DNA of 64,000 nt from a virus (taxonomy: Duplodnaviria; Caudoviricetes). Shown here piece by piece: positions 14,763 through 49,002 of the stretch. How positions within the stretch are numbered: the first letter of the stretch is position 1; the number at the start of each line of letters is the position of its first letter. Position numbers and translations under genes: made by a program. A model generated the notes under the pieces. That model was not told the origin of the DNA. It saw only the letters and a program-made list of their open reading frames with translations, and did no database searches. The DNA is taken from the IMG/VR virus record IMGVR_UViG_3300005934_000002, positions 20,783 through 84,782 of that record; one strand, given 5' to 3'.

Positions 14763-14783
14763 ACAATAAAGGGGTTATTAACT

Positions 14784-16262: not shown

Positions 16263-16273
16263 GGAAGTAGAAA

Positions 16274-17231: not shown

Positions 17232-17573
17232 ATGGACGAAAAACTTCAAAAAGCCTTAGAGTTTGGCAATTACAGTGCTACTCTGGAAAATCAAAAACGT
17301 ATGTTACACGAAAAATTTGTAACAGATACTATCTATTTCCATTCCGGCGGCCAATTCACTATTAATAAAGAACTATTAAACTATGTTTATATGTTAGTAT
17401 CAACAGAACAAGATACAACAGTTCTTATTGATGATAACAATATCCCGGTAGAAGTCAATGTAAGTGATTTTTATTCAAATATTTCTGACAAATATTTTAC
17501 AGCATCAAATGAATATCATATAGAGTACACTAAATTACAAAAGAGTAGATCAGTAGACGGTTTAGTAGAATGA
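17232..17573 (+). CDS. Hypothetical protein (113 aa)
   Basis: Clean ORF, ATGA-coupled to the downstream GT-like gene. Confidence 0.6.
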   Translation: MDEKLQKALEFGNYSATLENQKRMLHEKFVTDTIYFHSGGQFTINKELLNYVYMLVSTEQDTTVLIDDNNIPVEVNVSDFYSNISDKYFTASNEYHIEYTKLQKSRSVDGLVE

Positions 17574-18388
17574 CATCTGGTGTATTATTATTTGCATACA
17601 ACAATGAACAGATAGATTATGTTGCACAGGCTTGTTTTTTAGCAAAGCGTGTAAAAGAATATCTCAATCTTCCCACAACTCTTGTTACTGATGATAAAAA
17701 ACGTGTAGAAGAATTTTATGATTCTAATGTCTTTGACAGTATAGTTGTTTCAGACATCCAACGTAAAAATAAAAAAACATATCACGACGGTTCGTTATCT
17801 AAAAAAGTATTAGATTTTAAAAACTTTAATAGAAGTGATGCATATGATGTTACTCCATATGACAAAACACTTGTAATGGATACTGATTACATTATTAGTA
17901 ATGACTTATTAGCAAAATGTTTTACAAGCAACAACAACCTAATGATGTATAATAATAGTATGGATGTATCAGGTTGGCGAGAAGAATCAGAATTTGAATT
18001 TATAAGCGAAACAAGTATTAAATTTTATTGGGCAACTTGTGTATATTTTACAAAAGACTTGCAAAATAAAACATTCTTTAATTTAATAAAACATATTAAA
18101 GAAAATTACAATCATTATAGAAGTTTATATCAAATAACAAGTACAGTTTTTCGAAATGATTATGCATTTAGTATCGCGGCACACATTATGGGTCATGTAA
18201 AAGAACTTCCTGGTAAAATGATATACAGTACTCATAAGGATATTTTACAAAAAATAGATAATTCATCCATTAAGTTGCTTGTTGAAAAACAAGATAGAGT
18301 TGGAGAATATACGTTATTAAAATCTAAAGGTGTTAACTTACATATAATGAATAAGTTTAGTTTAAACAGGGAAGTTACTAATGCCTAA
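17570..18388 (+). CDS. GT-A fold glycosyltransferase-like protein
   Basis: DxD motif LVMDTDYII, N-terminal hydrophobic strand, late RND/H motifs; paralog of the next gene. Confidence 0.6.
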   Translation: MTSGVLLFAYNNEQIDYVAQACFLAKRVKEYLNLPTTLVTDDKKRVEEFYDSNVFDSIVVSDIQRKNKKTYHDGSLSKKVLDFKNFNRSDAYDVTPYDKTLVMDTDYIISNDLLAKCFTSNNNLMMYNNSMDVSGWREESEFEFISETSIKFYWATCVYFTKDLQNKTFFNLIKHIKENYNHYRSLYQITSTVFRNDYAFSIAAHIMGHVKELPGKMIYSTHKDILQKIDNSSIKLLVEKQDRVGEYTLLKSKGVNLHIMNKFSLNREVTNA

Positions 18389-19205
18389 TTTTACATTTCT
18401 TGCACAAAATAACGAAGACAATTATATTAAACAAGCAGAGTTATTAGCATTAAGTATTAGGAACACTAATCCTAATAGTAAAATATGTCTCATTACCAAT
18501 GATGAAGTAGAACGTAAAGATCTATTTGATGACATTGTATCTATTCCATGGGAAGATAAAGCAGAAGAACACAAATGGAAGGTGCAGAATCGTTGGAAAA
18601 TATATCATGCTTGTCCTTATGATGAAACTTTTGTTTTAGATACTGATATGTTAGTATTACACGACTTAACAAATTGGTGGAAACTAATGCAAAATTACGA
18701 AGTATTTTATACAACTAAGGTAACAGATTACAAATATGATAAACTTAATACAAGTTATTATAGAAAAACATTTCAACAAAATAAATTACCAGACATATAT
18801 GTTGCATTACATTATTTTAAAAAGTGTGATTTTGCTAAAACATTCTATACGTGTTTAGAAGAAGTTATGAAGAACTGGGAATACTATTATGAAAAGTATG
18901 CACCAAAGAAAATGCAAAAGTTTTTAAGTGTAGATGTTTGTACAGCAATAACTATTAGAGTATTAGACGTTGAACACAAAGTAACAAATAGTAAATTACC
19001 GTTTCCTTCATTTGTACACATGAAGCCATATGCTCAACCGTGGGTAACACAAACTAAAAAATGGCAGGATAGGATTAGTTGTTTTGTAAATGAAAATAAA
19101 CAGATGCGAGTAGGAGGTCATTTACAAAATACAGTATTTCATTATACTGAAAAAGATTTTACAGAGAAATTTTATGACAGATTCAATTATACAGTTTCCA
19201 GTTAA
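18381..19205 (+). CDS. GT-A fold glycosyltransferase-like protein (GT8-like)
   Basis: DxD motif FVLDTDMLV; FVHMK late motif; N-terminus parallels 17570 (NNE...Y..QA..LA). Confidence 0.6.
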   Translation: MPNFTFLAQNNEDNYIKQAELLALSIRNTNPNSKICLITNDEVERKDLFDDIVSIPWEDKAEEHKWKVQNRWKIYHACPYDETFVLDTDMLVLHDLTNWWKLMQNYEVFYTTKVTDYKYDKLNTSYYRKTFQQNKLPDIYVALHYFKKCDFAKTFYTCLEEVMKNWEYYYEKYAPKKMQKFLSVDVCTAITIRVLDVEHKVTNSKLPFPSFVHMKPYAQPWVTQTKKWQDRISCFVNENKQMRVGGHLQNTVFHYTEKDFTEKFYDRFNYTVSS

Positions 19206-19737
19206 ATCTACAAAATTAAAAGCACACGATTCTATTAAAGAAGAATTGTTAACAGCAATTAATTCTACTACTCTTGTTGAAAACATTTATGGTCCTAACA
19301 ATAATATTACACGTTGCGATTGGGGTCCTGGAAGATTTGATCCAAATAGAGAGTGGTTAAAAGTTTTACAGTTTGATCTTAATGAACATTTAAAAGAATG
19401 GACTAAGAGTTTTATGTATGAAAGTTGGACTATACATGAAATATGGTTTCAACAGTATGCTAAAAATTCAACGCACTCATGGCACGTACACAGTTGCAAT
19501 TTTACAAGTGTATATTATTTAGATTTACCAGAAGAAACACCTAAGACTCAATGGATAGATCCTATATCAGGTACAGAATATGACTTTGATGTAAAAGAAG
19601 GAGATATAATTACATTTCCAAGTTGGACTATACACAGAGCACCAATAAATCAATCAGATAAAATAAAAACTATTATATCATGGAATATGGATGTTGATAT
19701 AAGTGACTATTTTGGAACAAAATATGATACAAACTAA
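19174..19737 (+). CDS. Putative Fe(II)/2OG oxygenase (HxH type)
   Basis: WHVH...VYYL...DIITFPSWTIH...IISWN pattern of phage 2OG oxygenases. Confidence 0.7.
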   Translation: MTDSIIQFPVKSTKLKAHDSIKEELLTAINSTTLVENIYGPNNNITRCDWGPGRFDPNREWLKVLQFDLNEHLKEWTKSFMYESWTIHEIWFQQYAKNSTHSWHVHSCNFTSVYYLDLPEETPKTQWIDPISGTEYDFDVKEGDIITFPSWTIHRAPINQSDKIKTIISWNMDVDISDYFGTKYDTN

Positions 19738-20287
19738 TTCACATAATGTACCAACATACGTAGAGTTCGATTCTAAAACCGGAGAACTTTTAACAGTCAC
19801 CAGTTATCCTAAGTCAGAAAATTATATTGAAGTAGAATTTAATAGAGTTGAAGGTATAGTTAACGGTATTGAAAAATTTAATCACTATAAGGTTGTATTT
19901 AATACAACTTCTTTAATGTATGAGTTAGTAAATGTGTACGATGATGTACATTTTGAATATAATGTTAATAATAGTTTGCATAAAATACAAGAATCTAAAG
20001 AAGCAGACATTATAATTTGTAAAAATTACATAAAGAAGTGTTGGGAAATTAAATTTGGAAAATTATTTGAAAAAACACTTAAAAAGAATAATGTAACATT
20101 GAATACTGTAAAAGACTTTAGTGTTGTAAAGAAAAATGATCCTTTTGTCCTATATAGATCTTTAAAATTCAATTTAGCAGACGATAATTTATTCTTGCAA
20201 TTTGATGATACTGATGCTATAATAGACTTTGATGTTTATACAAATAAAATGTTTAATAGTTACGGAGTAGAAGTTGTCAAAGATTAA
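19724..20287 (+). CDS. Hypothetical protein
   Basis: ORF track starts at GTG 19703; the in-frame ATG at 19724 preceded by GGA is the more plausible start. Confidence 0.55.
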   Translation: MIQTNSHNVPTYVEFDSKTGELLTVTSYPKSENYIEVEFNRVEGIVNGIEKFNHYKVVFNTTSLMYELVNVYDDVHFEYNVNNSLHKIQESKEADIIICKNYIKKCWEIKFGKLFEKTLKKNNVTLNTVKDFSVVKKNDPFVLYRSLKFNLADDNLFLQFDDTDAIIDFDVYTNKMFNSYGVEVVKD

Positions 20288-21173
20288 AATACAAGATGTT
20301 GATATTATCTTTTTAAGTTACGACGAGCCTAATGCTGAAGAAAATTGGGCAGACTTGCAACGTAAAATACCGTGGGCAAAACGTGTACACGGAGTAGAAG
20401 GTTCAGATGCCGCACACAAAGCCTGTGCAGATTTATCTGACACAAAACATTTTGTAACAGTTGACGGCGACACTATTGTTGATCCTCGCTTTATGCAAGT
20501 TGAATTAGACTTAGAAAAGTTAGGAGTAGATGACGACTACCAATTTAGTTGGTGTGGCAAAATTGACGTTAACGGACTTATGTATGGCAACGGTAGTTTA
20601 AAAATGTGGACTAAAGAGTTTGTTAAAAATATGAAAACTCATGAAAACACAGACGGCGCAGATGAAACAAGTATTGAGTTTTGTTACTTTGACAATTACT
20701 ATCAATTAAATGAAAATTATAGCACAAGTATAATTACATCAACTCCACAACAGGCATGGAGAGCAGGATTCCGTGAAGGTGTTAAGATGTCATTGGATAG
20801 AGGAAAGCCTGTAGAAGATATTAATACATTATGGTGGCAGAATAAACATAGATTATATATTTGGCAAATGGTAGGCTGTGATGTTCCTAACGGTATTTGG
20901 GCAGTATATGGTGCCCGTCTTGGAACATATATGAATATGCTTACAGAATGGGATCATACACAAACAAGAGACTTCACATATCTAAATAATTTATGGAAAG
21001 AACACGAAAATGTAGAAGTTGCAGAAGAGTGTAAGGAGATAGGTAAAAAATTAATTAATGAATTAGACTTACCTATTGCTGTTGTTCCGTTTGATAAATT
21101 ACAAAGTGAATTCTTTAAAACTGTTTATTTGAACAGTGATAGGGTAATTCGTAAACAAAAAGGAAAACAATGA
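20274..21173 (+). CDS. Glycosyltransferase-like protein (GT-A, VDGD motif)
   Basis: DIIFLSYDEPNA...VTVDGDT...AWRAGFREGVK; paralog of 29396. Confidence 0.55.
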   Translation: MSKIKIQDVDIIFLSYDEPNAEENWADLQRKIPWAKRVHGVEGSDAAHKACADLSDTKHFVTVDGDTIVDPRFMQVELDLEKLGVDDDYQFSWCGKIDVNGLMYGNGSLKMWTKEFVKNMKTHENTDGADETSIEFCYFDNYYQLNENYSTSIITSTPQQAWRAGFREGVKMSLDRGKPVEDINTLWWQNKHRLYIWQMVGCDVPNGIWAVYGARLGTYMNMLTEWDHTQTRDFTYLNNLWKEHENVEVAEECKEIGKKLINELDLPIAVVPFDKLQSEFFKTVYLNSDRVIRKQKGKQ

Positions 21174-21358
21174 AGTTAGCAGACAAAAAGATATTTTTTC
21201 TTTTAAGTCTTTTAGTTATAGGACTACTTGTAAGTTTAGGAGTGAATAGTTACTTACTGTCCGAAATTGGCGACATAAGAGAAATACTTGACGCTCAATT
21301 TGAAGTAATAAGACGCTTAATGGAAATGCAAGGTTTTAGATTCGAAGATTCAGCATGA
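21170..21358 (+). CDS. Small predicted single-pass membrane protein (62 aa)
   Basis: Hydrophobic IFFLLSLLVIGLLVSLGV; ATGA overlaps with both neighbours. Confidence 0.55.
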   Translation: MKLADKKIFFLLSLLVIGLLVSLGVNSYLLSEIGDIREILDAQFEVIRRLMEMQGFRFEDSA

Positions 21359-22725
21359 GCGAAGTAGATAGAATTAAAGAGGTAATGCCCGAGATTGATA
21401 AAATCTCTCCAACATTTTGTTTGGCAAAGTGGCATCACGTAACAATATATTTGCAGACAGGCGAAACACACAGTTGTTATCATCCTGCTCCGCACAAAAT
21501 ACCTCTTGATGGTCTTATAGATAATCCAAGTCAACTACATAATACTCCGCAAAAAAAGCAAGAACGTAAAGAAATGCTCGAAGGCGGAAAACCTTCTGGT
21601 TGCCAATACTGTTGGAATATTGAATGTATGGGTAAAGATTATGTAAGTGATAGGCATATTAAGACAGCAAGTATATACAGGCCAGATCGTATAGAAGAAA
21701 TTACAAGTAATCCTTGGGATTATAACATTAATCCAGAATACATAGAAGTTAATTTTAGTAACGAATGTAACTTTAAGTGTGGATATTGTCATCCTAAGTT
21801 TAGTACAAGTTATTATAATGAAATTAAAAAATACGGACCTTATAAAACCAGCACTACTCATAGAAACGATATTGACTGGTTTGAACTATATGAAGAAAGC
21901 AAAAACCCTTACGTAGAGGCATGGTGGAAGTGGTGGCCTGAAGTTAGTAAAACACTTAACATTTTACGTATTACAGGCGGCGAACCTTTAATGCATCGTA
22001 GTACATGGGAACTATTTGATAGGTTAGAAAAAGATCCTAAGCCTCATATTCAAATCGAACTTAATAGTAATATGGGTGTAAAAGAAAAACTTGTTAAAAA
22101 ACTTGTAGAGCGTATTAAACATCTCAAAGAAAATAATTGTATTAGAAGTTTTAAACTTTATACAAGTATAGATACATGGGGTGCAAAAGCAACTTACACA
22201 CGTAGAGGTTTAGATTTAGCATTATGGGAACGTAATCTTGATTATTATTTGACTAATCTTGGGTATCCAGTTACGTTTATGATCACATTTAATTTGTTTG
22301 CAGTAACAAGTTTTGACAAACTACTTAAAAAGATTCTTGAATGGAGATCTAAATATAATAAAAACAACAAAACACAGTGGCAAAATATTAGATTTGATAC
22401 ACCATACTTAAAAGAGCCTATCCAGTTTGATATGAATATACTGCCTAAAGAACAGTTTATGCCTTATATGACTAAGCATTTAAAATTTATTGCAGAACAT
22501 ACAGACGATAATGATAGAACAAAATTTAGTTTATTAGAATATGAAAGATTTCGTAGAGTTGTAGATTATATGCGTACTACTGAATATAATGAAGAAAAAC
22601 TTTTAGAAGGACACAAAAATTTTTATAACTGGTTTAAAGAGTATGATGAAAGAAGCGGAACTAAACTTACTGAAGTGTTTCCTGAATTAGAATCTTTTTA
22701 TTATAATTGTAGTTCTAAAGTATAA
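21355..22725 (+). CDS. Radical SAM enzyme 1, N-terminal twitch/SPASM-like Cys motif
   Basis: CNFKCGYC; GGEP; N-terminal FCLAKW...HSCYH...GCQYC. Confidence 0.9.
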   Translation: MSEVDRIKEVMPEIDKISPTFCLAKWHHVTIYLQTGETHSCYHPAPHKIPLDGLIDNPSQLHNTPQKKQERKEMLEGGKPSGCQYCWNIECMGKDYVSDRHIKTASIYRPDRIEEITSNPWDYNINPEYIEVNFSNECNFKCGYCHPKFSTSYYNEIKKYGPYKTSTTHRNDIDWFELYEESKNPYVEAWWKWWPEVSKTLNILRITGGEPLMHRSTWELFDRLEKDPKPHIQIELNSNMGVKEKLVKKLVERIKHLKENNCIRSFKLYTSIDTWGAKATYTRRGLDLALWERNLDYYLTNLGYPVTFMITFNLFAVTSFDKLLKKILEWRSKYNKNNKTQWQNIRFDTPYLKEPIQFDMNILPKEQFMPYMTKHLKFIAEHTDDNDRTKFSLLEYERFRRVVDYMRTTEYNEEKLLEGHKNFYNWFKEYDERSGTKLTEVFPELESFYYNCSSKV

Positions 22726-23740
22726 CATTATTGTTATAAATTTCAAATGCAAGTTTTTGATTGTGTGTTAAAATATCATCCATTTCATTAAGCATCTCTT
22801 TACATTCATCAATACTTAACATTTTAATACTGTCTAACAAATAGCGTATCTTATTCATACGGTAAGTATGATTTTCTTCAGTATCGTAACTTTCGTCCCA
22901 CGTAAATGTTTTAAATCCTAATTTGCGTATATACTCTAATGTATAAGGCGGAGCAACACATATAAAAGGGCGTTTATGTATCATTGCATTTACAGTTTTT
23001 TCGCTGAAGTTTCCTGTAGGCTGATAGAAACGTGTTTCGTTTGCAACTACACAAAAACTTTTTTCATAATACTCAGATAAACTTGCTGGACCGTTAACTT
23101 GTCCTTCCGGCCATTTTTTATGTGCAGGGTCTACACTTTCTAATTTGCTGTCTATACTTAATGGAGGATTAGTAAATGCCCAACTGTAATAACCTGGAGT
23201 ATCTTGTAGATGTTCTATAATTAAACGCCTGTGTAAACTATAACGCCAGTTGGGACAAATAAAATGTTTATCGATATTGTTTTTTATAGTGATGTTTCCG
23301 CCATTAAATTGATTACGTAAAAATATATCAAAACATTTTAATTCAAACGGATATGTTGTTATATGTTTTTCTATATTGTAATCACAAGTATATACTGTAA
23401 TTTTTGCTTTTATTTGTTTACTAAAATCTTCGATACTATCTAATTCATCTGCACGTAAATTTTCGCCACCTTTGAATTCACTAAAAAATCCTCTATTATG
23501 TGTTTTACCTTCTTCGTAAAAACTTAAAGGCTCGTACAAGTAAATGTCTAATGTTTTTAATTTATTAATTAGTTTAGGTGTAAGTGGGAACTTACTAAAG
23601 TCTATTTTATTAGTTCCAGTAAAGATTATATAAGGGCGTTCAGTTTTCCAATGTTGAAATAATTCGTGAAACATTTTTCCTGATTTATTACGCAAACTTT
23701 TAGTTGGCAAGTTGCCCCAGAAAATATCTTGAGTAAACAT
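22715..23740 (-). CDS. Hypothetical protein, possibly glycosyltransferase-related (ET...SEKT...PF family)
   Basis: C-terminal VANET...FSEKT...RPFI...LGFKTF motif shared with 26480. Confidence 0.5.
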   Translation of the reverse strand: MFTQDIFWGNLPTKSLRNKSGKMFHELFQHWKTERPYIIFTGTNKIDFSKFPLTPKLINKLKTLDIYLYEPLSFYEEGKTHNRGFFSEFKGGENLRADELDSIEDFSKQIKAKITVYTCDYNIEKHITTYPFELKCFDIFLRNQFNGGNITIKNNIDKHFICPNWRYSLHRRLIIEHLQDTPGYYSWAFTNPPLSIDSKLESVDPAHKKWPEGQVNGPASLSEYYEKSFCVVANETRFYQPTGNFSEKTVNAMIHKRPFICVAPPYTLEYIRKLGFKTFTWDESYDTEENHTYRMNKIRYLLDSIKMLSIDECKEMLNEMDDILTHNQKLAFEIYNNNVIL

Positions 23741-24244
23741 TTAATAATATGTGCCTGTTATTTGTAAAGTATATCTTGGGTCAACGCCAATGTTACTTGC
23801 GGCGTGTGGAGCATCGGCATCCCATAAAACATATTCGCCTGCTTTATAATTTACAACTCCTACTCCTTCAACTTCGAAATAGTGGCCTGGTTTCCATTCT
23901 TCTAAAAATACAATAGCACGTCTAACATCTACTCTTTGTTTTTTAAATACTTTACAGTATGTGTTGAAATGATCTACGTGTACAGGCATAATATCTAAAG
24001 TATCCATTCTATAAAAAACAAATCCCGGATCTTTGAAATTTAATAATCTTGCAACTTGTTCAGTCCATTCAGGCATAGGATTTTTACTATCGTACATTTT
24101 ACCTGTTGTTGTATCGTGTGTATAACCTTGTTTCCGCCAGGTATCTGCTTCTTCACCTGTAATAGGTTGTCTTACATATTCAAAATTTTTGTATTCATCT
24201 TTCCAGAAAACAGGAAGAAAACCTCTATAAAACATCTCTTTCAA
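23741..24244 (-). CDS. Putative Fe(II)/2OG oxygenase (HxD...H)
   Basis: PVHVD...PHAASN...RYTLQIT facial-triad pattern. Confidence 0.65.
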   Translation of the reverse strand: MKEMFYRGFLPVFWKDEYKNFEYVRQPITGEEADTWRKQGYTHDTTTGKMYDSKNPMPEWTEQVARLLNFKDPGFVFYRMDTLDIMPVHVDHFNTYCKVFKKQRVDVRRAIVFLEEWKPGHYFEVEGVGVVNYKAGEYVLWDADAPHAASNIGVDPRYTLQITGTYY

Positions 24245-25193: not shown

Positions 25194-25863
25194 ATGATAC
25201 TCTTCCAGGCCAGTGTTTTAAAATAAGATCTTCAACTTCAAGATTACTCATCCTTGAGTTTTCGCCTTTAATTTGTTGTACAATCGTTTCCATATGAGTA
25301 CACCAATTTTTAGTTGATTCTTCTAATTTATATCCTAAGTGGGGATAAACAAACTTAGAAACATAATTCATATGTTCTAAAATACTTGGGTGTTGATCTC
25401 CGTATACAGATTTTGTATTAGGAAAAATATTATTATGACCTGGTAAATTTTCTTTTATTTTTCTTATGTGTCCGTTAAAAATATTGTTAGTAAATTGTTG
25501 TACAAAAGCATTACCTTGTAAAATAGCAGTTTTGTTTCTTATATTGTCGTTTTCCTCACTCCAGTGATTTTTTAAATAATCATCTGAATAGTAATCACTG
25601 TTTAATATATTACCTTCAGTAATCCATTTATCTTCTTTAAATAAATCAACTCTTGTCCAACTACTCCACAATATGCAAATAATATCTTCGTTTGTAAAAT
25701 TATGTTTTTCATTTGCTTCAACTAATCTACAAGCAATACCTTGATTGCCCATTCCTGCTTTTGCATAATTATGAGTTTCACAATCTAAATCTTTAGAAAT
25801 AATATCACTCCAAGTAGGCCAAATATATTCTGTATATGAACAACCAAATGTAAACAATCTCAT
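25186..25863 (-). CDS. SGNH/GDSL-like protein
   Basis: N-terminal LFTFGCSYTE...N.A..G.GN and late DQHP motif; paralogs at 28611 and 61899. Confidence 0.5.
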   Translation of the reverse strand: MRLFTFGCSYTEYIWPTWSDIISKDLDCETHNYAKAGMGNQGIACRLVEANEKHNFTNEDIICILWSSWTRVDLFKEDKWITEGNILNSDYYSDDYLKNHWSEENDNIRNKTAILQGNAFVQQFTNNIFNGHIRKIKENLPGHNNIFPNTKSVYGDQHPSILEHMNYVSKFVYPHLGYKLEESTKNWCTHMETIVQQIKGENSRMSNLEVEDLILKHWPGRVSYV

Positions 25864-26444: not shown

Positions 26445-26449
26445 ACACG

Positions 26450-26457
26450 TATTTATA
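26450..26457 (-). promoter_or_regulatory. T4-consensus late promoter TATAAATA driving the minus-strand 26444-22715 unit
   Basis: Exact TATAAATA on the minus strand, 5 nt before ATG 26444. Confidence 0.65.
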
Positions 26458-26467
26458 TACGCAGTTA

Positions 26468-26474: not shown

Positions 26475-26479
26475 TATAT

Positions 26480-41915: not shown

Positions 41916-42888
41916 CGCAAGTTACCTCACAAATTTTAAATCTATTTTCTTTTGGTTGTGTAAGCAAGTCACTTTCAACTATGTCTTGTAGATTCATATT
42001 GTTTACATTAGGCCACGTAATACTATTACATTCTTCAGCATATGGACTGTTAGGATTTTTAGCATAACGATCACTTAACAAATAACAACAAGGAAATACT
42101 TCTCCTGTATGACTTATTTGTATTTTTTGTTTTCGTTGCCATTTACAACTAATACAACCTTTGTCTAATCCTACTTTTAATACTTTTTCTAAACGCTCTA
42201 CATTATCTAAATGTTTTTTATCATACTTTATAGTACGTGCTTGTTCTTTCTTAGTTGCCTTAAATTTTTCTACTGCTTCTGATACTATACTATCTATTGC
42301 AGTAAATGTATAACCGCCGTTAATATCAAAAACAACAAACCCCATATCTTTAGATAATTGCTCACACTGTTCTATTTGATGTTTGTTGTGATCAAATACA
42401 AGCATACGCCATCTTGCTAAACCACCTGCGTCTATAAATGCTTTTGCATTTTCCATTACACTTTCCCAAACAACATGACGCCTATACAAATGATTAGTAT
42501 CTTCTAATCCGTCAATACTAAACGTAATAACACCTTGCGGAAAATTTCTTAATTCTTGTGCAATTAACCTATACAAATTTGGTTTGCCAATACCACCATT
42601 AGTGTGTATCATTATTTTGCATTTTAGTTTTTTTGCATATTGTAGTGCAAATGGTAAATTTGGATTCATTAAAGGATCACCATATGCACCATTAAAAATA
42701 ATTTCTTCTACACCTTTTGCATTGTCTACAATGTTTTTAAAAGTATCCATATCCATATGACCTAAAGGCATATGAGGGTTAACAGTCACACCGTCGATGT
42801 TACGTGAGCAGTTTCCACACATAGCATTACAATGACTTGTAAAGTCAATTACTATTGTTTTTAGATCATTTTTCGATAAGAATTGCAT
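41905..42888 (-). CDS. Radical SAM enzyme 8, C-terminal SPASM/twitch motif
   Basis: CNAMCGNC; GAYGDP; ISC...GEVFPCCY...CEVTC; paralog of 32235. Start placed at ATG 42888 (MQFLSK), just downstream of TAAATA. Confidence 0.88.
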   Translation of the reverse strand: MQFLSKNDLKTIVIDFTSHCNAMCGNCSRNIDGVTVNPHMPLGHMDMDTFKNIVDNAKGVEEIIFNGAYGDPLMNPNLPFALQYAKKLKCKIMIHTNGGIGKPNLYRLIAQELRNFPQGVITFSIDGLEDTNHLYRRHVVWESVMENAKAFIDAGGLARWRMLVFDHNKHQIEQCEQLSKDMGFVVFDINGGYTFTAIDSIVSEAVEKFKATKKEQARTIKYDKKHLDNVERLEKVLKVGLDKGCISCKWQRKQKIQISHTGEVFPCCYLLSDRYAKNPNSPYAEECNSITWPNVNNMNLQDIVESDLLTQPKENRFKICEVTCGEV

Positions 42889-42893
42889 ACTGT

Positions 42894-42899
42894 ATTTAA
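42894..42899 (-). promoter_or_regulatory. Putative late promoter TAAATA, 4-5 nt before ATG 42888
   Basis: Minus strand TAAATA, then a few nt, then ATG; no SD. Confidence 0.55.
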
Positions 42900-42933
42900 C
42901 ATCATTATCAGAGTACATAATGGTACCTGGCAC

Positions 42934-42940
42934 ATAAATA
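42934..42940 (+). promoter_or_regulatory. Putative late promoter ATAAATA, 5 nt before ATG 42946
   Basis: ATAAATA-CTGAT-ATG; divergent partner of 42894. Confidence 0.55.
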
Positions 42941-42945
42941 CTGAT

Positions 42946-43662
42946 ATGCAAGAATTAGACAATTTCCATAAAGAACATGGTAAAATAATCAACGAAAAAT
43001 ATCCTGACACTTTTGATCCTAAATGGTTAGTAATGGAAAGTGGTTGGGGATATTTTCATATGAGTGCTTTAGATAAACAGCCTTTTAAAGAAATGCATAA
43101 AGAAGCAGAAGCACTACTTGATAAGTTTCATGAACATAGAGAAGAATATGGTCATGGTTGGAAAAGTCTTACCCTTCATGGACTAAATGAAGATACGCAA
43201 AGTTTAAATCAATATGGTAAACGCAGTGACGTTTTAGAACAATTAGATTGGACTTGGGTAGCAGAACAATGTCCTACTACTAAAAAGTTTTTAACAGATG
43301 TATGGCCTGCAGAATTTTTAAATCGTGTAAGATTTATGTTACTTGAACCAGGCGGATATATTCTACCCCATCAAGATAGACCAGATGAAGAAAAGCGTTT
43401 AAGTGTTTGTAACATTAGTTTGAATAATCCAGATAACTGTCAGTTTGTTTTTAAAGACAAAGGTATAGTTCCTTTTAAAGATGAAGGTAGTGCTTTCTTA
43501 ATGGATATTAGCAATCAACATAGTGTTTGGAATAGAAGCGATAAACCAAGAATACATATGATTATTCATTTTGAATTAGGTAGACGTACCAGAGATATGT
43601 TTTATACGTTAAGACAGAGTTTTTACACAAACAGGAGTAGACTAAATGAAAGACTGGAATAG
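42946..43662 (+). CDS. Fe(II)/2OG oxygenase, AspH-like
   Basis: RFMLLEPGGYILPHQD...QHSVWN...RIHMII; start ATG 42946 preferred over the track start 42883. Confidence 0.8.
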   Translation: MQELDNFHKEHGKIINEKYPDTFDPKWLVMESGWGYFHMSALDKQPFKEMHKEAEALLDKFHEHREEYGHGWKSLTLHGLNEDTQSLNQYGKRSDVLEQLDWTWVAEQCPTTKKFLTDVWPAEFLNRVRFMLLEPGGYILPHQDRPDEEKRLSVCNISLNNPDNCQFVFKDKGIVPFKDEGSAFLMDISNQHSVWNRSDKPRIHMIIHFELGRRTRDMFYTLRQSFYTNRSRLNERLE

Positions 43663-45112
43663 TCTATCTGTTGATCGTTACTATGAAGATTTAAATTCTA
43701 ATGCCGATGTTGCAATTGGTATTCTTGATATTTCACGTGACATTGATAATGAATTTGTTGCTAAACGCACATTTGATAAAACATATTTTTATGTAAATCG
43801 AATGTTAAAAATGAACCTTGCAAGTTATGTAGGTTTTGAAAAAAGTGTAAAAACTCTTTTGTTAAAATCTATTAAACAAAATAAAAAGTATTGTATGATT
43901 GCTTGTCAAGGATTACTACTATACAGAGGTCCAAGTTTAGTGCAGAAAAGTGTAGAATATGCTGAAAAGAATCCGCAGTTTTTTGTAGTAGGACATATCA
44001 TGGATAAGAAAAAACAGCATCATTATATTACAGCAGGTGCTTATCCAGGATTACATAGACAATACCTATTTGTTAATCTTGCTAAATGGAAAGAACTTGG
44101 AGAACCAGAATTTGACGAATTAGGATTTTTTCCAGATAGGCCAAGAGAATATAGAAATGTAGAATTTAGTGCAGACACAATTCACAGTGAATATACACCT
44201 GCTTGGGTAAAAGGCGCAGAAGGTTATAACAAACACACTGTTACTGCTGACGGAAGTAACTGGATTCATATTGCCGCAGAGAATAATATTACTATTGACA
44301 ATCTTGATAATGATATGCGTGAGTGCAAAGTATTTCTTTATCCTTATAACAGACCGGATATACTCGAAAAGGTTTGGTTAGATAAACGTAATGATGAACT
44401 TGTTGATCAATTAAATTACAGCCAAAAGGCTTGGATAAGAAAACTTGGTTATCAAGAAGAAATTGAAAAAGATAGAGTCTATGCTTTTAACACAGAAAGA
44501 CTAAGTGGTGAAGGTGTAAGAACAAACGGTAAATTTATTGATCATTTGTTTAGTGCGGCCGCAGGTTTCAAACCACTTGCTATATTAAATGCAAATGGGT
44601 TTCATGAAGGTACAACAGTACATTACTTTGATTGGTGTGAAGCAAGTTTAAAATATAAAAAGCACTTACTTGAAACTTGGGACGGATACGATTTAGATGC
44701 TTGGTTGCTTGAACATGATTTAGAATATAATTTTAGTTCGACATATAGAGGAAATTATAAAAAGTTCTGGGAACAAGAACTAAAAGAATTTGGCGGAAGT
44801 TTAAGATTTCAAAGTTTATGGGACAGGTATAGAAAATTAAAACATGAATTTTATGTTATAGATATTGTAAATGATAGCCATAAACTTTTTACAGAAATAA
44901 ACAAATACCACGGAACACGAGTATTGTGGACTACAAATATTTGGTCAAGCGAAATGTTGCATTGGAATATGCAACCTGAAGATTTAGAAACTTTATATCT
45001 AAAATTTAAATCGCAAGTTCCTGATAACTTAGTTGTATATGGACACGACTATTGTGCTATAGACTTAAATGATAGTGTAAAAGGTAATTACACTCATGTG
45101 AGATACAAATAA
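43646..45112 (+). CDS. Hypothetical protein (488 aa)
   Basis: Long clean ORF coupled to both neighbours; no family recognised. Confidence 0.7.
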   Translation: MKDWNSLSVDRYYEDLNSNADVAIGILDISRDIDNEFVAKRTFDKTYFYVNRMLKMNLASYVGFEKSVKTLLLKSIKQNKKYCMIACQGLLLYRGPSLVQKSVEYAEKNPQFFVVGHIMDKKKQHHYITAGAYPGLHRQYLFVNLAKWKELGEPEFDELGFFPDRPREYRNVEFSADTIHSEYTPAWVKGAEGYNKHTVTADGSNWIHIAAENNITIDNLDNDMRECKVFLYPYNRPDILEKVWLDKRNDELVDQLNYSQKAWIRKLGYQEEIEKDRVYAFNTERLSGEGVRTNGKFIDHLFSAAAGFKPLAILNANGFHEGTTVHYFDWCEASLKYKKHLLETWDGYDLDAWLLEHDLEYNFSSTYRGNYKKFWEQELKEFGGSLRFQSLWDRYRKLKHEFYVIDIVNDSHKLFTEINKYHGTRVLWTTNIWSSEMLHWNMQPEDLETLYLKFKSQVPDNLVVYGHDYCAIDLNDSVKGNYTHVRYK

Positions 45113-45828
45113 TGAAAAAGAAATTAGCATACATTATAGGTGGCGAACCAAGATTAATTCAACATTCATTTGACGAGAGTACAGTTTACAAAGATCTTTG
45201 TAAAGAATATAATGTTGATGTTTATATACATTGTTGGACACAAGAGTTTAAATGGACTGCATACAATAATCATTATAGGTGGCGTAGAAATAAAGGTTAT
45301 TTTCCTCCAGGCGAAACTTATGTAAAAGTTAGCAACGAAGATATTATTGAACAATATAAAATATATGAACCTAAAGAATGTGTTATTGAAGACTATGATG
45401 AAAAATTTACTATAGGAGATTTTCCTTTTGGTCAATATATTAGTAGAGCAAAGGCTTATAAAAATGCTGTAGAACAAGACAAGTATGATTTTGTTTGGCT
45501 AACAAGATCAGATGCTATCGGTGTAGGCCCACTCCACAGAATGTTAAGAAATAAAATATATTGTCCAGAAGCAATTTTTGAAGACTCTCGACAACTATTT
45601 AGAGCAGAAGATTGGTACTATGCAGGATCTACTAATATGTTTGAAAATCTTATTCCATTTGCAAACGATCCGTTAACTGCAATAACTAATTTATATGAGA
45701 ATAAATGGTTAAAAGAAAATATGGATAAAATTAGAAATACACATATATGGCAAGCCTTATTAACTGGAGGCGACGGTGCAAATGTATTTCAAGGTGATGA
45801 TATAACATGGAAACTCCCGCATTATTAA
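45112..45828 (+). CDS. Hypothetical protein, possibly glycosyltransferase-like
   Basis: AYIIGGEPR...DVYIHCW...YDFVWLTRSD resembles GT-like proteins of capsule loci. Confidence 0.45.
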   Translation: MKKKLAYIIGGEPRLIQHSFDESTVYKDLCKEYNVDVYIHCWTQEFKWTAYNNHYRWRRNKGYFPPGETYVKVSNEDIIEQYKIYEPKECVIEDYDEKFTIGDFPFGQYISRAKAYKNAVEQDKYDFVWLTRSDAIGVGPLHRMLRNKIYCPEAIFEDSRQLFRAEDWYYAGSTNMFENLIPFANDPLTAITNLYENKWLKENMDKIRNTHIWQALLTGGDGANVFQGDDITWKLPHY

Positions 45829-46391
45829 TTTTAGATTACGACGGTACTTTAGCAGATTGTAAATCATTACACCAACAGGCTTTTAGGAAAGCCTGTAATA
45901 TTGTAAACCCTGAGATCGAATATTCGGACAATGAAGTAGAAGGTTTACCAACATTTAAAAAAATAGAATATTTAAAAAGTAAAAAATATGTTTTTAATGA
46001 AACAGAGTTAATGTCAATAAAACAAAAACTCACTATGGAAAACATACACGAGTACATAAAGTTTGATCAAGAATTAAAAGATATTTTAACAAGACTAAGC
46101 AAAAAATATAAATTAGCAGTTTGTTCTAATGCTACAAAAGAGTTTGTAGAAAAGGGTTTAAAAATACAACAGTTAGATATGTTTGAACCTGTGTGTACAG
46201 CATCAGATCATTTGCCTAAACCCGAAGTAGATATATACTTTTATGCTATGTATTATTTCGGATTTGCCCCTCAACAGACAGTAATATTTGAAGATTCGGA
46301 ATTAGGCATACAAGCCGCAACGGATACAACTGCCACAGTAAAAACGGTAAGTAATGTTGAGCATCTTAAAGGATTACTAAATGAGTATTAA
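45807..46391 (+). CDS. HAD-family phosphatase (beta-PGM-like)
   Basis: LDYDGTLAD (motif I), CSN (II), PKP (III), FEDSELG (IV). Confidence 0.85.
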   Translation: METPALLILDYDGTLADCKSLHQQAFRKACNIVNPEIEYSDNEVEGLPTFKKIEYLKSKKYVFNETELMSIKQKLTMENIHEYIKFDQELKDILTRLSKKYKLAVCSNATKEFVEKGLKIQQLDMFEPVCTASDHLPKPEVDIYFYAMYYFGFAPQQTVIFEDSELGIQAATDTTATVKTVSNVEHLKGLLNEY

Positions 46392-47091
46392 ATTAATAAT
46401 GCCAATGGCAGGAACTGGTACAAGGTTTGTAGAAGCAGGTTATACAGAACCTAAACCTTTAATTAAAATAAAAGGTGTTCCTATGTTTCAATATGCAGAA
46501 ACACAAATAGGAATTAACTTTGACGAAAGAATTTTTATTGTAAGAAAAGATCATAATATTGCAGATACTATTAAGTCTTTATATCCTACAGCCACTACAA
46601 CAGTAATAGAATTAGACGAAGATACAGAAGGAACTGCTTGTACATTATTAAAAGCAAAATCTTTATTCACAGAAGACGATTCTGTTTTTGTTGCTAATTG
46701 TGATCAAAGCGTTGTTTGGGATAGAAAATTAGCAAAGCAAATTGTAAAGAGTGTAGCAGATGGAGCAATAGCAACATTTATAAATGACGAAAAAGATCCT
46801 AAATGGAGTTTTGCAAAAGAAGTCAACGGAATAATAACAGAAGTTGCCGAAAAAAATCCTATATCAAATAAAGCAACAGTAGGATATTATTGGTGGAGAG
46901 ATGCTACACAGATGTTTAGAAACATCGAACAAATGATAAAAGCCAATGATAGAGTTAATGGCGAATTTTATACGTGTCCTGTGTTTAACTACACAATCAA
47001 AGAAGGAAGTACAATCTTTGATATCCCTGTAATGACTATGAAAGGTTTAGGTACTCCTGAAGATTTGGAGAGTTACTTAAATGAAAATTGA
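46381..47091 (+). CDS. Sugar-phosphate nucleotidyltransferase-like protein
   Basis: MPMAGTGTRF...PKPLI, EGTA, VANCD, EK, LGTPEDL. Confidence 0.8.
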   Translation: MSIKLIMPMAGTGTRFVEAGYTEPKPLIKIKGVPMFQYAETQIGINFDERIFIVRKDHNIADTIKSLYPTATTTVIELDEDTEGTACTLLKAKSLFTEDDSVFVANCDQSVVWDRKLAKQIVKSVADGAIATFINDEKDPKWSFAKEVNGIITEVAEKNPISNKATVGYYWWRDATQMFRNIEQMIKANDRVNGEFYTCPVFNYTIKEGSTIFDIPVMTMKGLGTPEDLESYLNEN

Positions 47092-47917
47092 AACTAAAAA
47101 TAATTGGGTAATTGAAATATCAGATTTTGATATCCGTACTGCTACTAAAGAACAAGCGTTCATGATTGGTAGATATATTCTAAGCAATATGGTCGTTGTG
47201 TTAAAGAATCAAGATCTTGAACCAGAGGATGAAGTTGCTTTTTGTTCTAAGATTGGTAAATGTCAGTTTATCATAGATCCAACTAAACCTCGAGAAGGAC
47301 AACGCACAGAACATCTTGCAGTCGGACATCACATATTACGTGTTACAGGACAAAAGAATGAAAAGGGCGAAGAAGGTTTATTTGGCCATACATCTGCACT
47401 TGACTGGCACGCCAACCAAGCAAGTAACTATGAGCGTGATCCTTTGATATGGTTGTACGGAGTTGAAGGTACTGCTGGTAGCAAAACAAGTTGGATTAAT
47501 AATATTGAAAGTTATAATGCACTACCAGAAGAATTTAAAAAAGAAATTCAAGACATACAGATTACCTTAGGATATAAGAGCGGATCGTATAGTCCAAGCA
47601 AGTTCTTTGTAGAACATCATAGCGAGGATAAACCTTTCCAATTGGTTCATGTCAATGACGCAGGCTACACAGGTTTATATTTTCCTTTCCTACAAATTTT
47701 TGGAATGCCTGGAAAAACAGAAGAACAGTTTAAAGATATAATGAGCAGACTAATTGAACACGTTACACAACCTCAATTCTGTTATGATCATTATTGGGAA
47801 GACGGTGATATTGTATTAAGCGAACAGTGGTTAAGCATACACAAACGATGGGCGTTTGACAAAATGGAAGATCGTATTCTTCATAGGATAGCATTTAATT
47901 ATGAAAACTTATTATAA
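47081..47917 (+). CDS. TauD/TfdA-family dioxygenase (HxN variant)
   Basis: VVVLKNQ, LDWHAN, HYWEDGDIVL...IHKR...RILHRI. Confidence 0.8.
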   Translation: MKIETKNNWVIEISDFDIRTATKEQAFMIGRYILSNMVVVLKNQDLEPEDEVAFCSKIGKCQFIIDPTKPREGQRTEHLAVGHHILRVTGQKNEKGEEGLFGHTSALDWHANQASNYERDPLIWLYGVEGTAGSKTSWINNIESYNALPEEFKKEIQDIQITLGYKSGSYSPSKFFVEHHSEDKPFQLVHVNDAGYTGLYFPFLQIFGMPGKTEEQFKDIMSRLIEHVTQPQFCYDHYWEDGDIVLSEQWLSIHKRWAFDKMEDRILHRIAFNYENLL

Positions 47918-48470
47918 ACTTTTAGAATATAGTCCAGACATGGACTTGACGGAGTTTTATAAACAAGCGGCGAAACAGGGTTACGTAAACAATTCAAATC
48001 AAAAAATTATGATTGATGCGTTTAACAATGAAGAACGTGCCCAAGTATGGATTCTATTTAAAGAAGATAAAGCCATGGGTGCAGTTGCCGCACACACATT
48101 CCCAGAGATGGGCGAAAACAGTTATAGAATATTAACAAGGACCTGTGCAGTAGGAGGCATGATGCACTCTGCAGGGTCAATGGCAAGATTAAAACGTAAC
48201 GAAGATGTTAGTTCACGTTTTTACGTACCTAAGATGATTGAATGGTGTGGCATGGATAGTAATATGTATTGCACCACAAATGATTTAGAAGGTGGTTCAC
48301 AAAGAGCAGTACATAGAGTTTGGTTGCCAATAATGGCTAAACAAGGACTGTTTACAAAAATTAAAGAGATAGATTATAGAGGTGTTAGACAAACTGTATG
48401 GAAACTTAATCCAAAAGAGTTCTTAGAACATTTAGATAAACACCCGTGGGAAGATCATGTTTTATTATAA
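47901..48470 (+). CDS. GNAT-like acyltransferase (tentative)
   Basis: Alpha/beta pattern WILF...MGAVAAH...YRILTRTC reminiscent of the GNAT core; no canonical motif A recognised. Confidence 0.35.
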   Translation: MKTYYKLLEYSPDMDLTEFYKQAAKQGYVNNSNQKIMIDAFNNEERAQVWILFKEDKAMGAVAAHTFPEMGENSYRILTRTCAVGGMMHSAGSMARLKRNEDVSSRFYVPKMIEWCGMDSNMYCTTNDLEGGSQRAVHRVWLPIMAKQGLFTKIKEIDYRGVRQTVWKLNPKEFLEHLDKHPWEDHVLL

Positions 48471-49002
48471 GCACATTGATATAGATAACAGCATCTGTGA
48501 AGAAGTAAAGCAGTGGGGATTAGATAATATACAAACCAGCGACATACCTTTTGTTAAATTAAATCTACAAAAATTTAATGATGAATGTCCTTTATTTTTA
48601 GAATGGACCAAACAACATGATATTAAAACAGAATGGGTCGTAGGTATTAAAGTAAATGCCCACAATGGACAAATTCAATCTAAAGTTCCTCATACAGATC
48701 TAAGACCTGAAGATCAAAATTATGCACTTAATTTTCCTGTAAAAAATTGTGATCAAACATATACCTGTATGTACAATTTAATAGAAGGTGATGAAATAAT
48801 TTTACGTGATAATGCTATTGCAGGCGGAGATGCAGACTACAAAATTTTTAGTGCTGATAGCAAATTTGAAGAAGTAGCAAAGTTCTATTTAAATAAACCA
48901 ACGTTGTTTGATACTAACATTCCACACAAGGTATTTAATAATACCGATCATGATCGTTTAAGTTTAAGTCTTAGATTTGAAAGTAATCCGAAACTGGATT
49001 AA
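48457..49002 (+). CDS. Putative Fe(II)/2OG oxygenase (HxD...H)
   Basis: VPHTD...IPHKVFN...RLSLSLRF. Confidence 0.7.
   Translation: MFYYKHIDIDNSICEEVKQWGLDNIQTSDIPFVKLNLQKFNDECPLFLEWTKQHDIKTEWVVGIKVNAHNGQIQSKVPHTDLRPEDQNYALNFPVKNCDQTYTCMYNLIEGDEIILRDNAIAGGDADYKIFSADSKFEEVAKFYLNKPTLFDTNIPHKVFNNTDHDRLSLSLRFESNPKLD

Follow-up and report, generated by a model that had tools for sequence, protein, structure and literature searches.

Hypervariable islands of enzyme genes in the tail-fibre region of marine myophages are already known, and one cassette of the kind described below has been annotated in a cultured cyanophage. In pelagimyophages and cyanomyophages the host recognition cluster (HRC) is an island of about 34–45 kb in the structural region by the tail fibres, encoding GT8 glycosyltransferases and UDP-glucose 6-dehydrogenase and carrying cassettes of radical S-adenosylmethionine (radical SAM) genes (PMC7029224, Zaragoza-Solas et al. 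2020). The cyanophage cassette, from S-SCSM2R, was named 'antibiotic synthesis genes' by its authors, and a different amidinotransferase (ORF266) and a 2-oxoglutarate (2OG) oxygenase were detected in purified virion preparations of that phage (PMC12801897). Here we analyse a 64,000-nucleotide (nt) stretch of the IMG/VR viral record IMGVR_UViG_3300005934_000002 (hereafter the window), in which positions 17,232–49,002 hold an island of 40 open reading frames (ORFs) between fibre genes. The island fits the definition of an HRC in lying in the structural module next to fibres, in being variable and in carrying glycosyltransferase genes, the definition itself being descriptive. HRC phages are T4-like with genomes of ~150–250 kb, whereas the island belongs to a separate jumbo phage lineage, its 40 enzyme genes are uninterrupted by fibre genes, and it has a colinear core that includes eight radical SAM enzymes. 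We tentatively read it as a late-transcribed, wholly cytoplasmic glycan-tailoring system that most likely acts on tail-fibre or baseplate proteins of the phage itself, an interpretation that we regard as quite possible though short of probable.

The ORFs of the island are tightly packed (99.3% coding), overlapping or abutting at 34 of the 35 same-strand junctions, and the sole gap, of 181 nt, contains a 62-amino-acid (aa) hydrophobic ORF. This small ORF, located before the radical SAM gene g21355, was considered as the precursor of a ribosomally synthesised and post-translationally modified peptide (RiPP) and rejected, being missing even from the closest relative. The genes fall into five units, and a T4-late-type motif, TAAATA or TAAGTA, lies 4–8 nt ahead of the start codon in all five. 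The longest-ORF calls of g41905 and g42883 overlap head to head by 69 nt, and the position of the motifs suggests that the true starts are likely the ATGs at 42888 (−) and 42946 (+), just past them. All six copies of ATAAATA in the 64 kb stand immediately before a gene start, three of them before those of the fibre genes g9955, g14784 and g48999; the copy that precedes g48999 lies at 50337 and is kept in relatives, likewise those upstream of g9955 and g14784. The exact sequence TATAAATA was observed once in the window against 11.9 copies expected from shuffles, the single copy preceding unit 2; so strong a depletion would fit a role as promoter signal. Among five long relatives (G001–G005, 83–268 kb, of which G001 is the closest), TAAATA stands upstream of the g17232 orthologue in each, and it also stands before relatives' fibre genes. 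In this phage and G001 the motif ends 4–8 nt before the start codon, leaving no space for a ribosome-binding site, and near-leaderless mRNAs are therefore possible; in G002–G005 the motif lies ~30 nt upstream of the g17232 orthologue and is followed by AGGAG.

The window makes up the final 64 kb of a contig of 84.8 kb whose CheckV completeness of 23% implies a genome of roughly 350–370 kb, and contigs of up to 365 kb encode the same genes. An AAA ATPase encoded in the window is 36–50% identical to those of the jumbo phages PA5oct, Phosso, SCTP-2 and Atu_ph07, and the phage represents a jumbo lineage of its own, with PA5oct, Atu_ph07 and RsoM2USA as distant relatives. The part of the contig that precedes the window has genes for a gp55-like late sigma factor (phrog_12791, E 4.5e-78) and, directly upstream of the gene for a giant protein, for baseplate hub and wedge proteins. 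The giant-protein frame runs from contig position 15804 to window position 9934 (~14.9 kb, ~4,970 aa), with the baseplate wedge on one side and the fibre genes on the other, and shows only faint FG-GAP and DUF2460 matches; RsoM2USA has a 2,541-aa virion protein at the equivalent position. The left flank continues with a gene for a small virion protein and with fibre genes; an N-terminal domain common to three of the five left-flank fibre/virion genes marks these as paralogues, g10574 carries a Collar domain (Pfam), and a fibre gene with an Mtd_N domain converges on the island from the right. The initial annotation, made from the sequence of the window, had described about 40 tightly coupled ORFs in five units, each starting at a TAA(A/G)TA motif, with virion genes on both sides, and this description holds. 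No collagen-like G-X-Y runs occur in the fibre proteins, and collagen-type hydroxylation and glycosylation of the fibres was rejected as stated on that ground; with a Cys content of 0–0.5%, sactipeptide-type Cys crosslinks on the fibres are also unlikely. Beyond the Mtd_N fibre gene, a DUF2201 metallopeptidase/VWA protein is paired with a MoxR-like AAA ATPase (51915–54369, −), the latter 99% identical to the G001 copy and showing the lowest ratio of non-synonymous to synonymous substitution (dN/dS, 0.017) in the window. A further oxygenase gene (2OG-FeII_Oxy_5; 55654–56271, −), weakly similar to g19174, lies outside the island amid replication and repair genes.

The location of the island is conserved among relatives. 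All five long relatives carry it at the same place between fibre genes, and the order fibre gene, g14784, g16274, g17232, g17570, g18381, g20274, g21355 is always kept in the fibre-anchored IMG/VR loci that are long enough to show it (~19). The colinear core comprises ~20 genes, with orthologues roughly 30–80% identical at the protein level, and includes all eight radical SAM genes, the sugar dehydrogenase, the genes for GT-A-type proteins, g31019, a mini-kinase, one cupin and g43646. Around it lie variable cassettes, namely unit 2, g28554, g34518–g36837 and g45112–g48457. Unit 2 genes are present among the five long relatives in G001 only, with the exception of g25186, which has a 32–33% match over ~57% of its length in G002–G005, and the right-hand cassette of distant relatives holds four to five Asp_Arg_Hydrox genes together with Trp_halogenase, AMP-binding, TauD and Aminotran_3 genes and a 644-aa radical SAM gene. 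In relatives (L147, L148) the Mtd_N fibre gene is immediately preceded by a gene of the flavin-dependent Trp-halogenase type and a short AMP-binding one. Relative to G001, dN/dS is 0.045–0.25 for island genes and 0.017–0.24 for flanking structural and replication genes, and by this measure the island is under purifying selection. Both the expectation that the island would follow the fibre genes in relatives while varying in content and the assumption of catalytically live enzymes (motifs intact, dN/dS 0.05–0.25) are thereby supported. Relatives of g33226 occur in at least 149 IMG/VR stretches (71–89% identical for the best 80), and the phage group is common in marine metagenomes, with Tara, JGI and ENA contigs carrying island genes. 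A megablast search of the island and its right flank against 50,697 phage records returned no match.

Eight island proteins score above the Pfam Radical_SAM (PF04055) cut-off (30.3–46.9 bits against 29.5) and all eight retain the CxxxCxxC motif, confirming an earlier count. Four of them are members of NF033640 (N_Twi_rSAM), a family with a curated NCBI cut-off of 170 bits over a full-length match; the other four score 20–54 bits and are non-members. The family is marked by an auxiliary Cys motif N-terminal to the core, with C6, C82 and C85 invariant upstream of CxxxCxxC at residues 138–145 and a CC pair in most aligned sequences, and Pfam places SPASM at residues 3–85, ahead of Radical_SAM, in these N-terminal twitch (N-twitch) enzymes. 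Two of the remaining proteins have a C-terminal SPASM domain and two are short forms with a Cys-rich tail. Literature searches on jumbo-phage radical SAM islands and on N-terminal twitch enzymes yielded no member that has been characterised. The cultured Vibrio phage K566 (255 kb) encodes at 158–177 kb at least four radical SAM proteins that are 22–31% identical to the N-twitch enzymes of the island, with neighbours that are all hypothetical, and such genes are also found in phages K567 and VS1.

Evidence for glycosyltransferases (GTs) comes mainly from predicted structures. The AlphaFold2 model of g20274 matched PBCV-1 A64R, SunS/ThuS, RmlT, TarP and WrtF in Foldseek searches (E 3e-4 to 1e-3), best of all A64R (E 3e-4, probability 1.00; VIA Z 10.3 over residues 3–155), and D64 and D66 of its DGD motif are invariant in 16 sequences. 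The modelled fold confirms g20274 as a predicted glycosyltransferase of the GT-A class, and paralogy extends the predicted fold to g29396. For g43646, the N-terminal part of the model (residues 17–270; AlphaFold2 mean pLDDT, the predicted local distance difference test, 88.6) has a GT-A fold (Foldseek/VIA, Z 8.5–9.9 to GT-A enzymes), and the C-terminal part (residues 273–486) a Rossmann, methyltransferase-like fold (Z 10.8 to 6ULO); its 174 homologues are all without a Pfam domain, and no source gives any of them a functional name. Among the structural neighbours of g20274 and g43646 are enzymes that glycosylate proteins or virions (PBCV-1 A64R, Mimivirus R699, SunS/ThuS, COLGALT1 and ppGalNAc-T2). 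Profile searches of the Protein Data Bank (PDB) with g20274, g43646, g22715 and g31019 gave no match by sequence, the folds of g20274 and g43646 being resolved later. The family profile of g17570 and g18381 matched only glycogenins in the PDB (19 sequences; E 0.01–0.06, residues 3–115), none of 15 members of this GT8-like family matched Pfam Glyco_transf_8, and profile–profile comparison revealed no significant similarity to either of the other GT-A families. The GT10 label for g22715 and g26480 is an ESM-Atlas lead (0.81), and the seven members of that family have no Pfam (PF00852) or PDB match. The four to seven GT-like genes of the initial annotation thus gain a fold for g20274, g29396 and the N-terminal half of g43646, while g17570 and g18381 remain weak candidates (E 0.01) and g22715 and g26480 leads.

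A supply of unusual sugars is suggested by several further enzymes. The nucleotide-sugar 6-dehydrogenase g27427 matches the central (63.1 bits, cut-off 25.4) and N-terminal (59.3 bits, cut-off 27) domains of Pfam UDPG_MGDP_dh, its C-terminal domain falling below the cut-off (20.8 against 30). Alongside it, the nucleotidyltransferase, amidinotransferase, two pyridoxal-phosphate (PLP) aminotransferases and HAD phosphatase named previously are supported by Pfam or, for the amidinotransferase, by alignment to 1BWD. The DegT-type protein g25860 is about half the usual DegT length and retains the SF..K....GG lysine motif; it is of equal length in G001 and S-SCSM2R. Five oxygenases score above their Pfam cut-offs (g19174, g31615, g36837, g42883 and g47081), and a total of eight, as first proposed, is reached by adding g48457, below the cut-off, and g23741 and g39913, recognised by motif. 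The methyltransferase, kinase, GNAT and two short-chain dehydrogenase/reductase (SDR) labels fared worse, family searches being weak or without support: g31019 has no Pfam, NCBIfam or PDB match, and the mini-kinase g40424 reaches E 0.003 with APH, E 0.003 with a Ser/Thr kinase and E 0.045 with PDB kinase domains. About 15 island ORFs have no supported family in Pfam, NCBIfam or PHROG, among them g17232.

The amidinotransferase g24225 aligns over its full length with StrB1, an inosamine-phosphate amidinotransferase, and also with 1JDX (E 1.7e-38), including the C-terminal GGGFHC active-site motif with its catalytic Cys, and has no Pfam match. StrB1 of streptomycin biosynthesis is its nearest solved relative (E 2e-62), and this, together with the DegT-type and class-III aminotransferases, the APH-like kinase and TauD of the island, the Trp halogenase and AMP-binding enzyme added in relatives and the 'antibiotic synthesis' label of the shared cyanophage cassette (PMC12801897), would suit a biosynthetic cluster for a diffusible or packaged small molecule (aminoglycoside-, nucleoside- or glycopeptide-like) made late in infection. 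We consider such a product improbable. No scaffold enzyme (inositol-phosphate synthase/cyclase, non-ribosomal peptide synthetase or polyketide synthase) and no conserved precursor-peptide ORF was found, a hydropathy scan of the 40 ORFs revealed no exporter or resistance transporter, the StrB1-like cassette is variable rather than core, and five GT-A-type proteins would be a high number for a small-molecule pathway. Since genes of an inositol or scyllo-inosamine pathway are absent from the island and g24225 sits in a variable cassette with glycosyltransferase-like genes, its substrate is more probably an amino-sugar than an aminocyclitol.

The QueC-like label of g36148 survived by a narrow margin, its score lying just above the cut-off. 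Phage DNA glycosyltransferases, and radical SAM and PLP enzymes in thymidine hypermodification pathways, are known, and these, with this PP-loop protein, would suit an island that hypermodifies phage DNA before or during packaging, by glycosylation or by 7-deazaguanine-type or amino-acid-type chemistry. We give this very little credence, since neither DpdA/TGT (PF01702, searched in G000–G004) nor a ThyA-like hydroxymethylase was found in five contigs, incomplete and at most 75% complete; the QueC-like gene belongs to a variable cassette shared by the window and G001 alone; and the island lies amid fibre rather than replication genes, with late-type motifs.

Table 1. Features of the window, with positions counted from its first nucleotide.
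Feature	Position	Strand	Evidence and remarks
Giant virion protein, 3' part	2–9934	+	Open frame; 82% identical to G001 copy; left flank
Five fibre/virion genes g9955, g10574, g12655, g14784, g16274	9955–17206	+	PHROG tail, tail-fibre and virion matches; left flank
Late-type motif TAAATA	17219–17224	+	7 nt before unit 1 start
Unit 1 (U1)	17232>22725	+	
g17232, 113 aa, first core gene	17232–17573	+	Kept in all relatives; RsoM2USA ORF354 32% identical; no Pfam, NCBIfam or PHROG match
g17570 and g18381, candidate GT-A (GT8-like) paralogues, DTD motif	17570–19205	+	Core; RsoM2USA homologues ORF353, ORF352
g19174, 2OG-Fe(II) oxygenase, variable	19174–19737	+	Pfam 2OG-FeII_Oxy_5, 36 bits against cut-off 27
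g19703, 194 aa, core	19703–20287	+	No family match; orthologues in G001–G005
g20274, predicted GT-A fold (GT2-like), DGD motif	20274–21173	+	AlphaFold2 pLDDT 84; seed-module gene; 43% identical to RsoM2USA ORF350
62-aa ORF, one hydrophobic helix	21170–21358	+	Phage-specific; no counterpart in relatives
g21355, N-twitch radical SAM (NF033640)	21355–22725	+	309.8 bits; seed-module gene; 35% identical to RsoM2USA ORF349, E 1e-92
Unit 2 (U2)	26444>22715	−	
Unit 2 cassette: g25860, g25186, g24225, g23741, g22715	22715–26444	−	Variable
g22715, GT10-like lead	unit 2	−	Atlas lead 0.81
g23741, cupin	unit 2	−	HxD...H motif by eye
g24225, StrB1-like amidinotransferase	unit 2	−	1BWD, E 2.4e-62, full length
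g25186, SGNH-like by eye	unit 2	−	Paralogue g28554
g25860, DegT-type PLP protein, 194 aa	25860–26444	−	DegT 61.9 bits
Divergent promoter region (putative)	26445–26479		TATAAATA 26457–26450 (−) for unit 2; TAAGTA 26469–26474 (+) for unit 3
Unit 3 (U3)	26480>38808	+	
g26480, paralogue of g22715, GT10-like lead	26480–27430	+	Paralogy; no Pfam match
g27427, UDP-glucose/GDP-mannose-family nucleotide-sugar 6-dehydrogenase	27427–28614	+	Core; 63–85% identical in all relatives
g28554, paralogue of g25186, SGNH-like by eye, variable	28554–29408	+	No family match
g29396, predicted GT-A (GT2-like)	29396–30085	+	31% identical to g20274, 46% to RsoM2USA ORF348; seed-module gene
g30060, short radical SAM, Cys-rich C-terminus	30060–31022	+	Pfam 46.6 bits; core; 50% identical to Bdellovibrionia gene
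g31019, 199 aa, Rossmann methyltransferase look by eye only	31019–31618	+	Seed-module gene; homologues RsoM2USA ORF347 and in Bdellovibrionota
g31615, Asp/Asn-hydroxylase-type cupin	31615–32235	+	Asp_Arg_Hydrox 24.3 bits against 22.6; 38% identical to Bdellovibrionia homologue
g32235, radical SAM with C-terminal SPASM	32235–33233	+	Pfam Radical_SAM and SPASM; paralogue of g41905; core
g33226, N-twitch radical SAM	33226–34527	+	NF033640 424.8 bits; core
Variable cassette g34518, g35630, g36148, g36837	34518–37373	+	Patchy in relatives
g34518, class-III aminotransferase	in 34518–37373	+	Aminotran_3 146 bits
g35630, short, SDR-like	in 34518–37373	+	Weak SDR match only
g36148, QueC-like PP-loop ATPase	in 34518–37373	+	QueC 23.9 bits against cut-off 22, marginal
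g36837, Asp/Asn-hydroxylase-type cupin	in 34518–37373	+	Asp_Arg_Hydrox 77 bits
g37370, short radical SAM	37370–38269	+	Pfam 44.9 bits; paralogue of g30060; core
g38266, 180 aa, SDR-like candidate	38266–38808	+	NCBIfam E 0.02 only
Unit 4 (U4)	42888>38759	−	
g38759, N-twitch radical SAM	38759–39913	−	NF033640 215.7 bits; core
g39913, 178 aa, cupin-like, variable	39913–40449	−	HxD...H motif only; no family match
g40424, 153-aa mini-kinase-like, core	40424–40885	−	HGDxxxxN and DWD motifs; all matches below cut-off
g40872, N-twitch radical SAM	40872–41915	−	NF033640 233 bits; core
g41905, radical SAM with C-terminal SPASM	41905–42888	−	Pfam 46.9 bits and SPASM; likely start ATG 42888; core
Divergent promoter region (putative)	42889–42945		TAAATA 42898–42893 (−) for unit 4; ATAAATA 42934–42940 (+) for unit 5
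Unit 5 (U5)	42946>49002	+	
g42883, Asp/Asn-hydroxylase-type cupin, core	42946–43662	+	Asp_Arg_Hydrox 56.9 bits; 73–89% identical in relatives; likely start ATG 42946
g43646, 488 aa, two domains	43646–45112	+	Core; family confined to this phage group
Right-hand cassette g45112, g45807, g46381, g47081, g47901, g48457	45112–49002	+	Variable
g45112, g47901	in 45112–49002	+	No assigned family
g45807, HAD phosphatase	in 45112–49002	+	HAD_2 77 bits
g46381, nucleotidyltransferase	in 45112–49002	+	NTP_transferase 31.9 bits
g47081, TauD dioxygenase	in 45112–49002	+	TauD 96 bits
g48457, cupin	in 45112–49002	+	Below Pfam cut-off
g48999, tail fibre with Mtd_N	48999–50297	−	Pfam Mtd_N 35.6 bits; right flank, convergent with island

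Parts of the island recur in a cultured soil phage. Only one of 50,697 deposited phage records matched g21355 or g20274, namely that of the Ralstonia jumbo phage RsoM2USA (MG752970), in which ORF355–347, all annotated as hypothetical, comprise a fibre-N-domain gene followed by homologues of g17232, g17570, g18381, g20274, g21355, g29396 and g31019 (31–47% identical). RsoM2USA shares the layout of baseplate hub, wedge, giant protein and fibres, with this mini-island at the equivalent point. It differs in having seven homologues (eight ORFs with the unmatched ORF351) against 40 genes here, with one radical SAM gene, no oxygenases and no sugar-nucleotide genes, and in its soil-bacterium host.

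A cellular counterpart occurs in the Bdellovibrionota, where 31 of the 151 species genomes sampled encode NF033640 proteins, reaching 11 or more copies per genome, against none of 14 control genomes. In one Bdellovibrionia chromosome a ~35-kb region (G006:C15:634000-670000) encodes seven N-twitch radical SAM proteins together with homologues of g30060 (50% identical), g32235, g29396, g31019, g31615, g35630/g38266 and g36148. Homologues of g29396 that are 38–43% identical adjoin N-twitch genes in this phylum, and the order GT-A gene, N-twitch radical SAM gene, GT-A gene, g31019-type gene recurs in several of its chromosomes, as in RsoM2USA. This recurrence ties the N-twitch enzymes to glycosyltransfer, and we posit that these four genes formed a seed module from which the island would have grown; in the window, unit 2 and the dehydrogenase gene are inserted within the module and divide it. 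In these predatory bacteria, radical SAM genes of the N-twitch and other types are densely clustered, the neighbouring proteins are mostly without a Pfam family, and the whole is an uncharacterised cellular system in its own right.

Cyanophage S-SCSM2R resembles the island in another part. Its ORF301–310 correspond to unit 2, with an inosamine-type amidinotransferase (65% identical), a short 195-aa DegT/AHBA_syn protein (52%) and a small 2OG oxygenase/cupin (28%), interleaved with glycosyltransferases and a radical SAM gene; a PrnA-like halogenase gene lies near the cassette. The likeness covers unit 2 only, S-SCSM2R being without the N-twitch radical SAM core. The presence of one cassette in a cyanophage genome as well, and the gain and loss of cassettes among relatives, would favour the absence of any single pathway, the island then being a hypervariable dumping ground for unrelated accessory enzymes beside the fibre genes. 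We judge this very unlikely given the conserved ~20-gene colinear core, the translational coupling evident from overlap or abutment at nearly all junctions, and the recurrence of the seed module as one block, both in a soil phage and in bacteria.

We infer a single pathway, its late timing, its chemistry and, above all, its acceptor. Late transcription would fit the motif shared with the fibre genes and the gp55-like late sigma factor encoded on the contig. Glycan assembly and tailoring are indicated by the recurrent pairing of N-twitch and GT-A genes, by the nucleotide-sugar enzymes and by the number of GT-A-type proteins; the annotated enzymes and predicted folds fit a glycan-centred pathway with a soluble acceptor. 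In such a pathway, the 6-dehydrogenase, nucleotidyltransferase, HAD phosphatase, two PLP aminotransferases, StrB1-like amidinotransferase and PP-loop amidotransferase-like protein would first make unusual activated amino-, guanidino- or uronic sugars, from which five or more GT-A-type transferases would build a short glycan on a soluble acceptor. The eight radical SAM enzymes and approximately eight Fe/2OG oxygenases would then modify the sugars, the side chains of the acceptor, or both. Fibre or baseplate proteins, made simultaneously from adjoining genes, may be the acceptor, which is the most economical choice because of the position of the island next to the fibres, the late-type motif shared with them and the arrangement in RsoM2USA. 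Exchange of cassettes could then give related phages differently decorated receptor-binding organelles. Among the targets offered in the initial annotation (virion proteins, packaged DNA or a small molecule made during morphogenesis), virion proteins are the likeliest and DNA modification is the least supported.

The acceptor is expected to be soluble since no ORF shows a membrane segment: in a simple hydropathy scan, rather than a dedicated predictor, no 19-residue window reached a hydropathy of 1.6 in any of the 40 ORFs. By the same scan there is no integral-membrane flippase, polymerase or initiating transferase, as a Wzx/Wzy- or ABC-dependent polysaccharide locus would have. This bears on the possibility that the island remodels the host envelope, altering lipopolysaccharide (LPS), O-chain or capsule from the cytoplasmic face by way of host flippases and so blocking superinfection or the sticking of progeny to debris. 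The GT8-like candidates resemble LPS-core transferases, the variability of the cassettes is like O-antigen diversity, PF05118 includes lipid A hydroxylases (LpxO), and peripheral GT-A enzymes are able to act on lipid-linked sugars. The corresponding islands of pelagimyophages were themselves read as O-chain modification (PMC7029224). We nonetheless hold envelope remodelling to be unlikely, though a serious rival, as the scan of the island revealed neither a membrane protein nor a flippase, polymerase or polyprenyl-phosphate transferase, a late motif common to the fibre genes would be poor timing for superinfection exclusion, eight radical SAM enzymes are unprecedented in LPS pathways, and a marine clade and a Ralstonia phage from soil share the core despite their differing host envelopes.

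Several points weigh against fibre or baseplate glycosylation. The literature found shows no modified virion protein in this phage group, the late timing is read from a sequence motif, and the acceptor cannot be identified from fold similarity. The GT8, GT10, methyltransferase, SDR and GNAT labels are weak or unsupported, and g43646 has no DxD at the expected position and a fold that nucleotidyltransferases also have. Some classical radical SAM protein chemistries would have no substrate in the fibres, which have no collagen-like repeats and almost no Cys. Peripheral GT-A enzymes can use lipid-linked sugars without membrane segments of their own. The S-SCSM2R amidinotransferase cassette lies amid glutaredoxin, ligase and SpeD genes rather than beside fibres, and the Bdellovibrionota clusters have no recognisable fibre gene nearby; Mtd_N was unmatched near them, but so was the control. 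We regard as doubtful the wider hypothesis that jumbo phages and Bdellovibrionota share an N-twitch/GT-A system installing a new radical-tailored glycan or side-chain modification on soluble proteins, and that its 40-gene marine version hypermodifies receptor-binding tail fibres and thereby generates diversity in host range and defence evasion.

If the fibres are indeed decorated, receptor-binding proteins may bear virus-encoded modifications as elaborate as natural products, which would matter for predicting host range, for engineering phages and for interpreting 'hypothetical' islands in marine viromes. Glycosylated mycobacteriophage virions are known, and the chlorovirus PBCV-1 capsid (A64R) and Mimivirus fibrils (R699) are decorated in the cytoplasm by the viruses' own GT-A transferases, sometimes with their own sugar-nucleotide enzymes. 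The likeness of those systems to the island is at the level of fold only, and they lack radical SAM enzymes and are much poorer in oxygenases. RiPP and cofactor maturases of the radical SAM/SPASM-twitch type, and twitch enzymes that act on sugars, BtrN for example, have in common with the island enzymes the CxxxCxxC core and an auxiliary Cys-rich Fe-S domain, and the island enzymes show weak NCBIfam similarity to many maturases; by comparison, four of the island enzymes carry the auxiliary domain N-terminally, and their genes co-occur with GT-A genes and not with peptides. A search for a RiPP cluster found no conserved precursor-peptide gene and no match to the RiPP recognition element (RRE) domain in the island, a precursor elsewhere being possible. 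The four paralogous NF033640 lineages paired with GT-A transferases point to an unknown radical chemistry of sugars or proteins.

The claim of novelty first made for the locus stands as to its density of enzymes and its eight radical SAM genes, and was overstated in that fibre-region islands with GT and radical SAM genes (PMC7029224) and the S-SCSM2R cassette (PMC12801897) had been described. New relative to those systems are the lineage, the run of 40 consecutive enzymes with eight radical SAM proteins and about eight oxygenases, and the defined core. Also new is a seed module common to a cultured soil jumbo phage and the Bdellovibrionota, in which the uncharacterised radical SAM family NF033640 takes part. 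RsoM2USA and S-SCSM2R are cultured systems that carry parts of the island, and the Bdellovibrionota offer its cellular counterpart.

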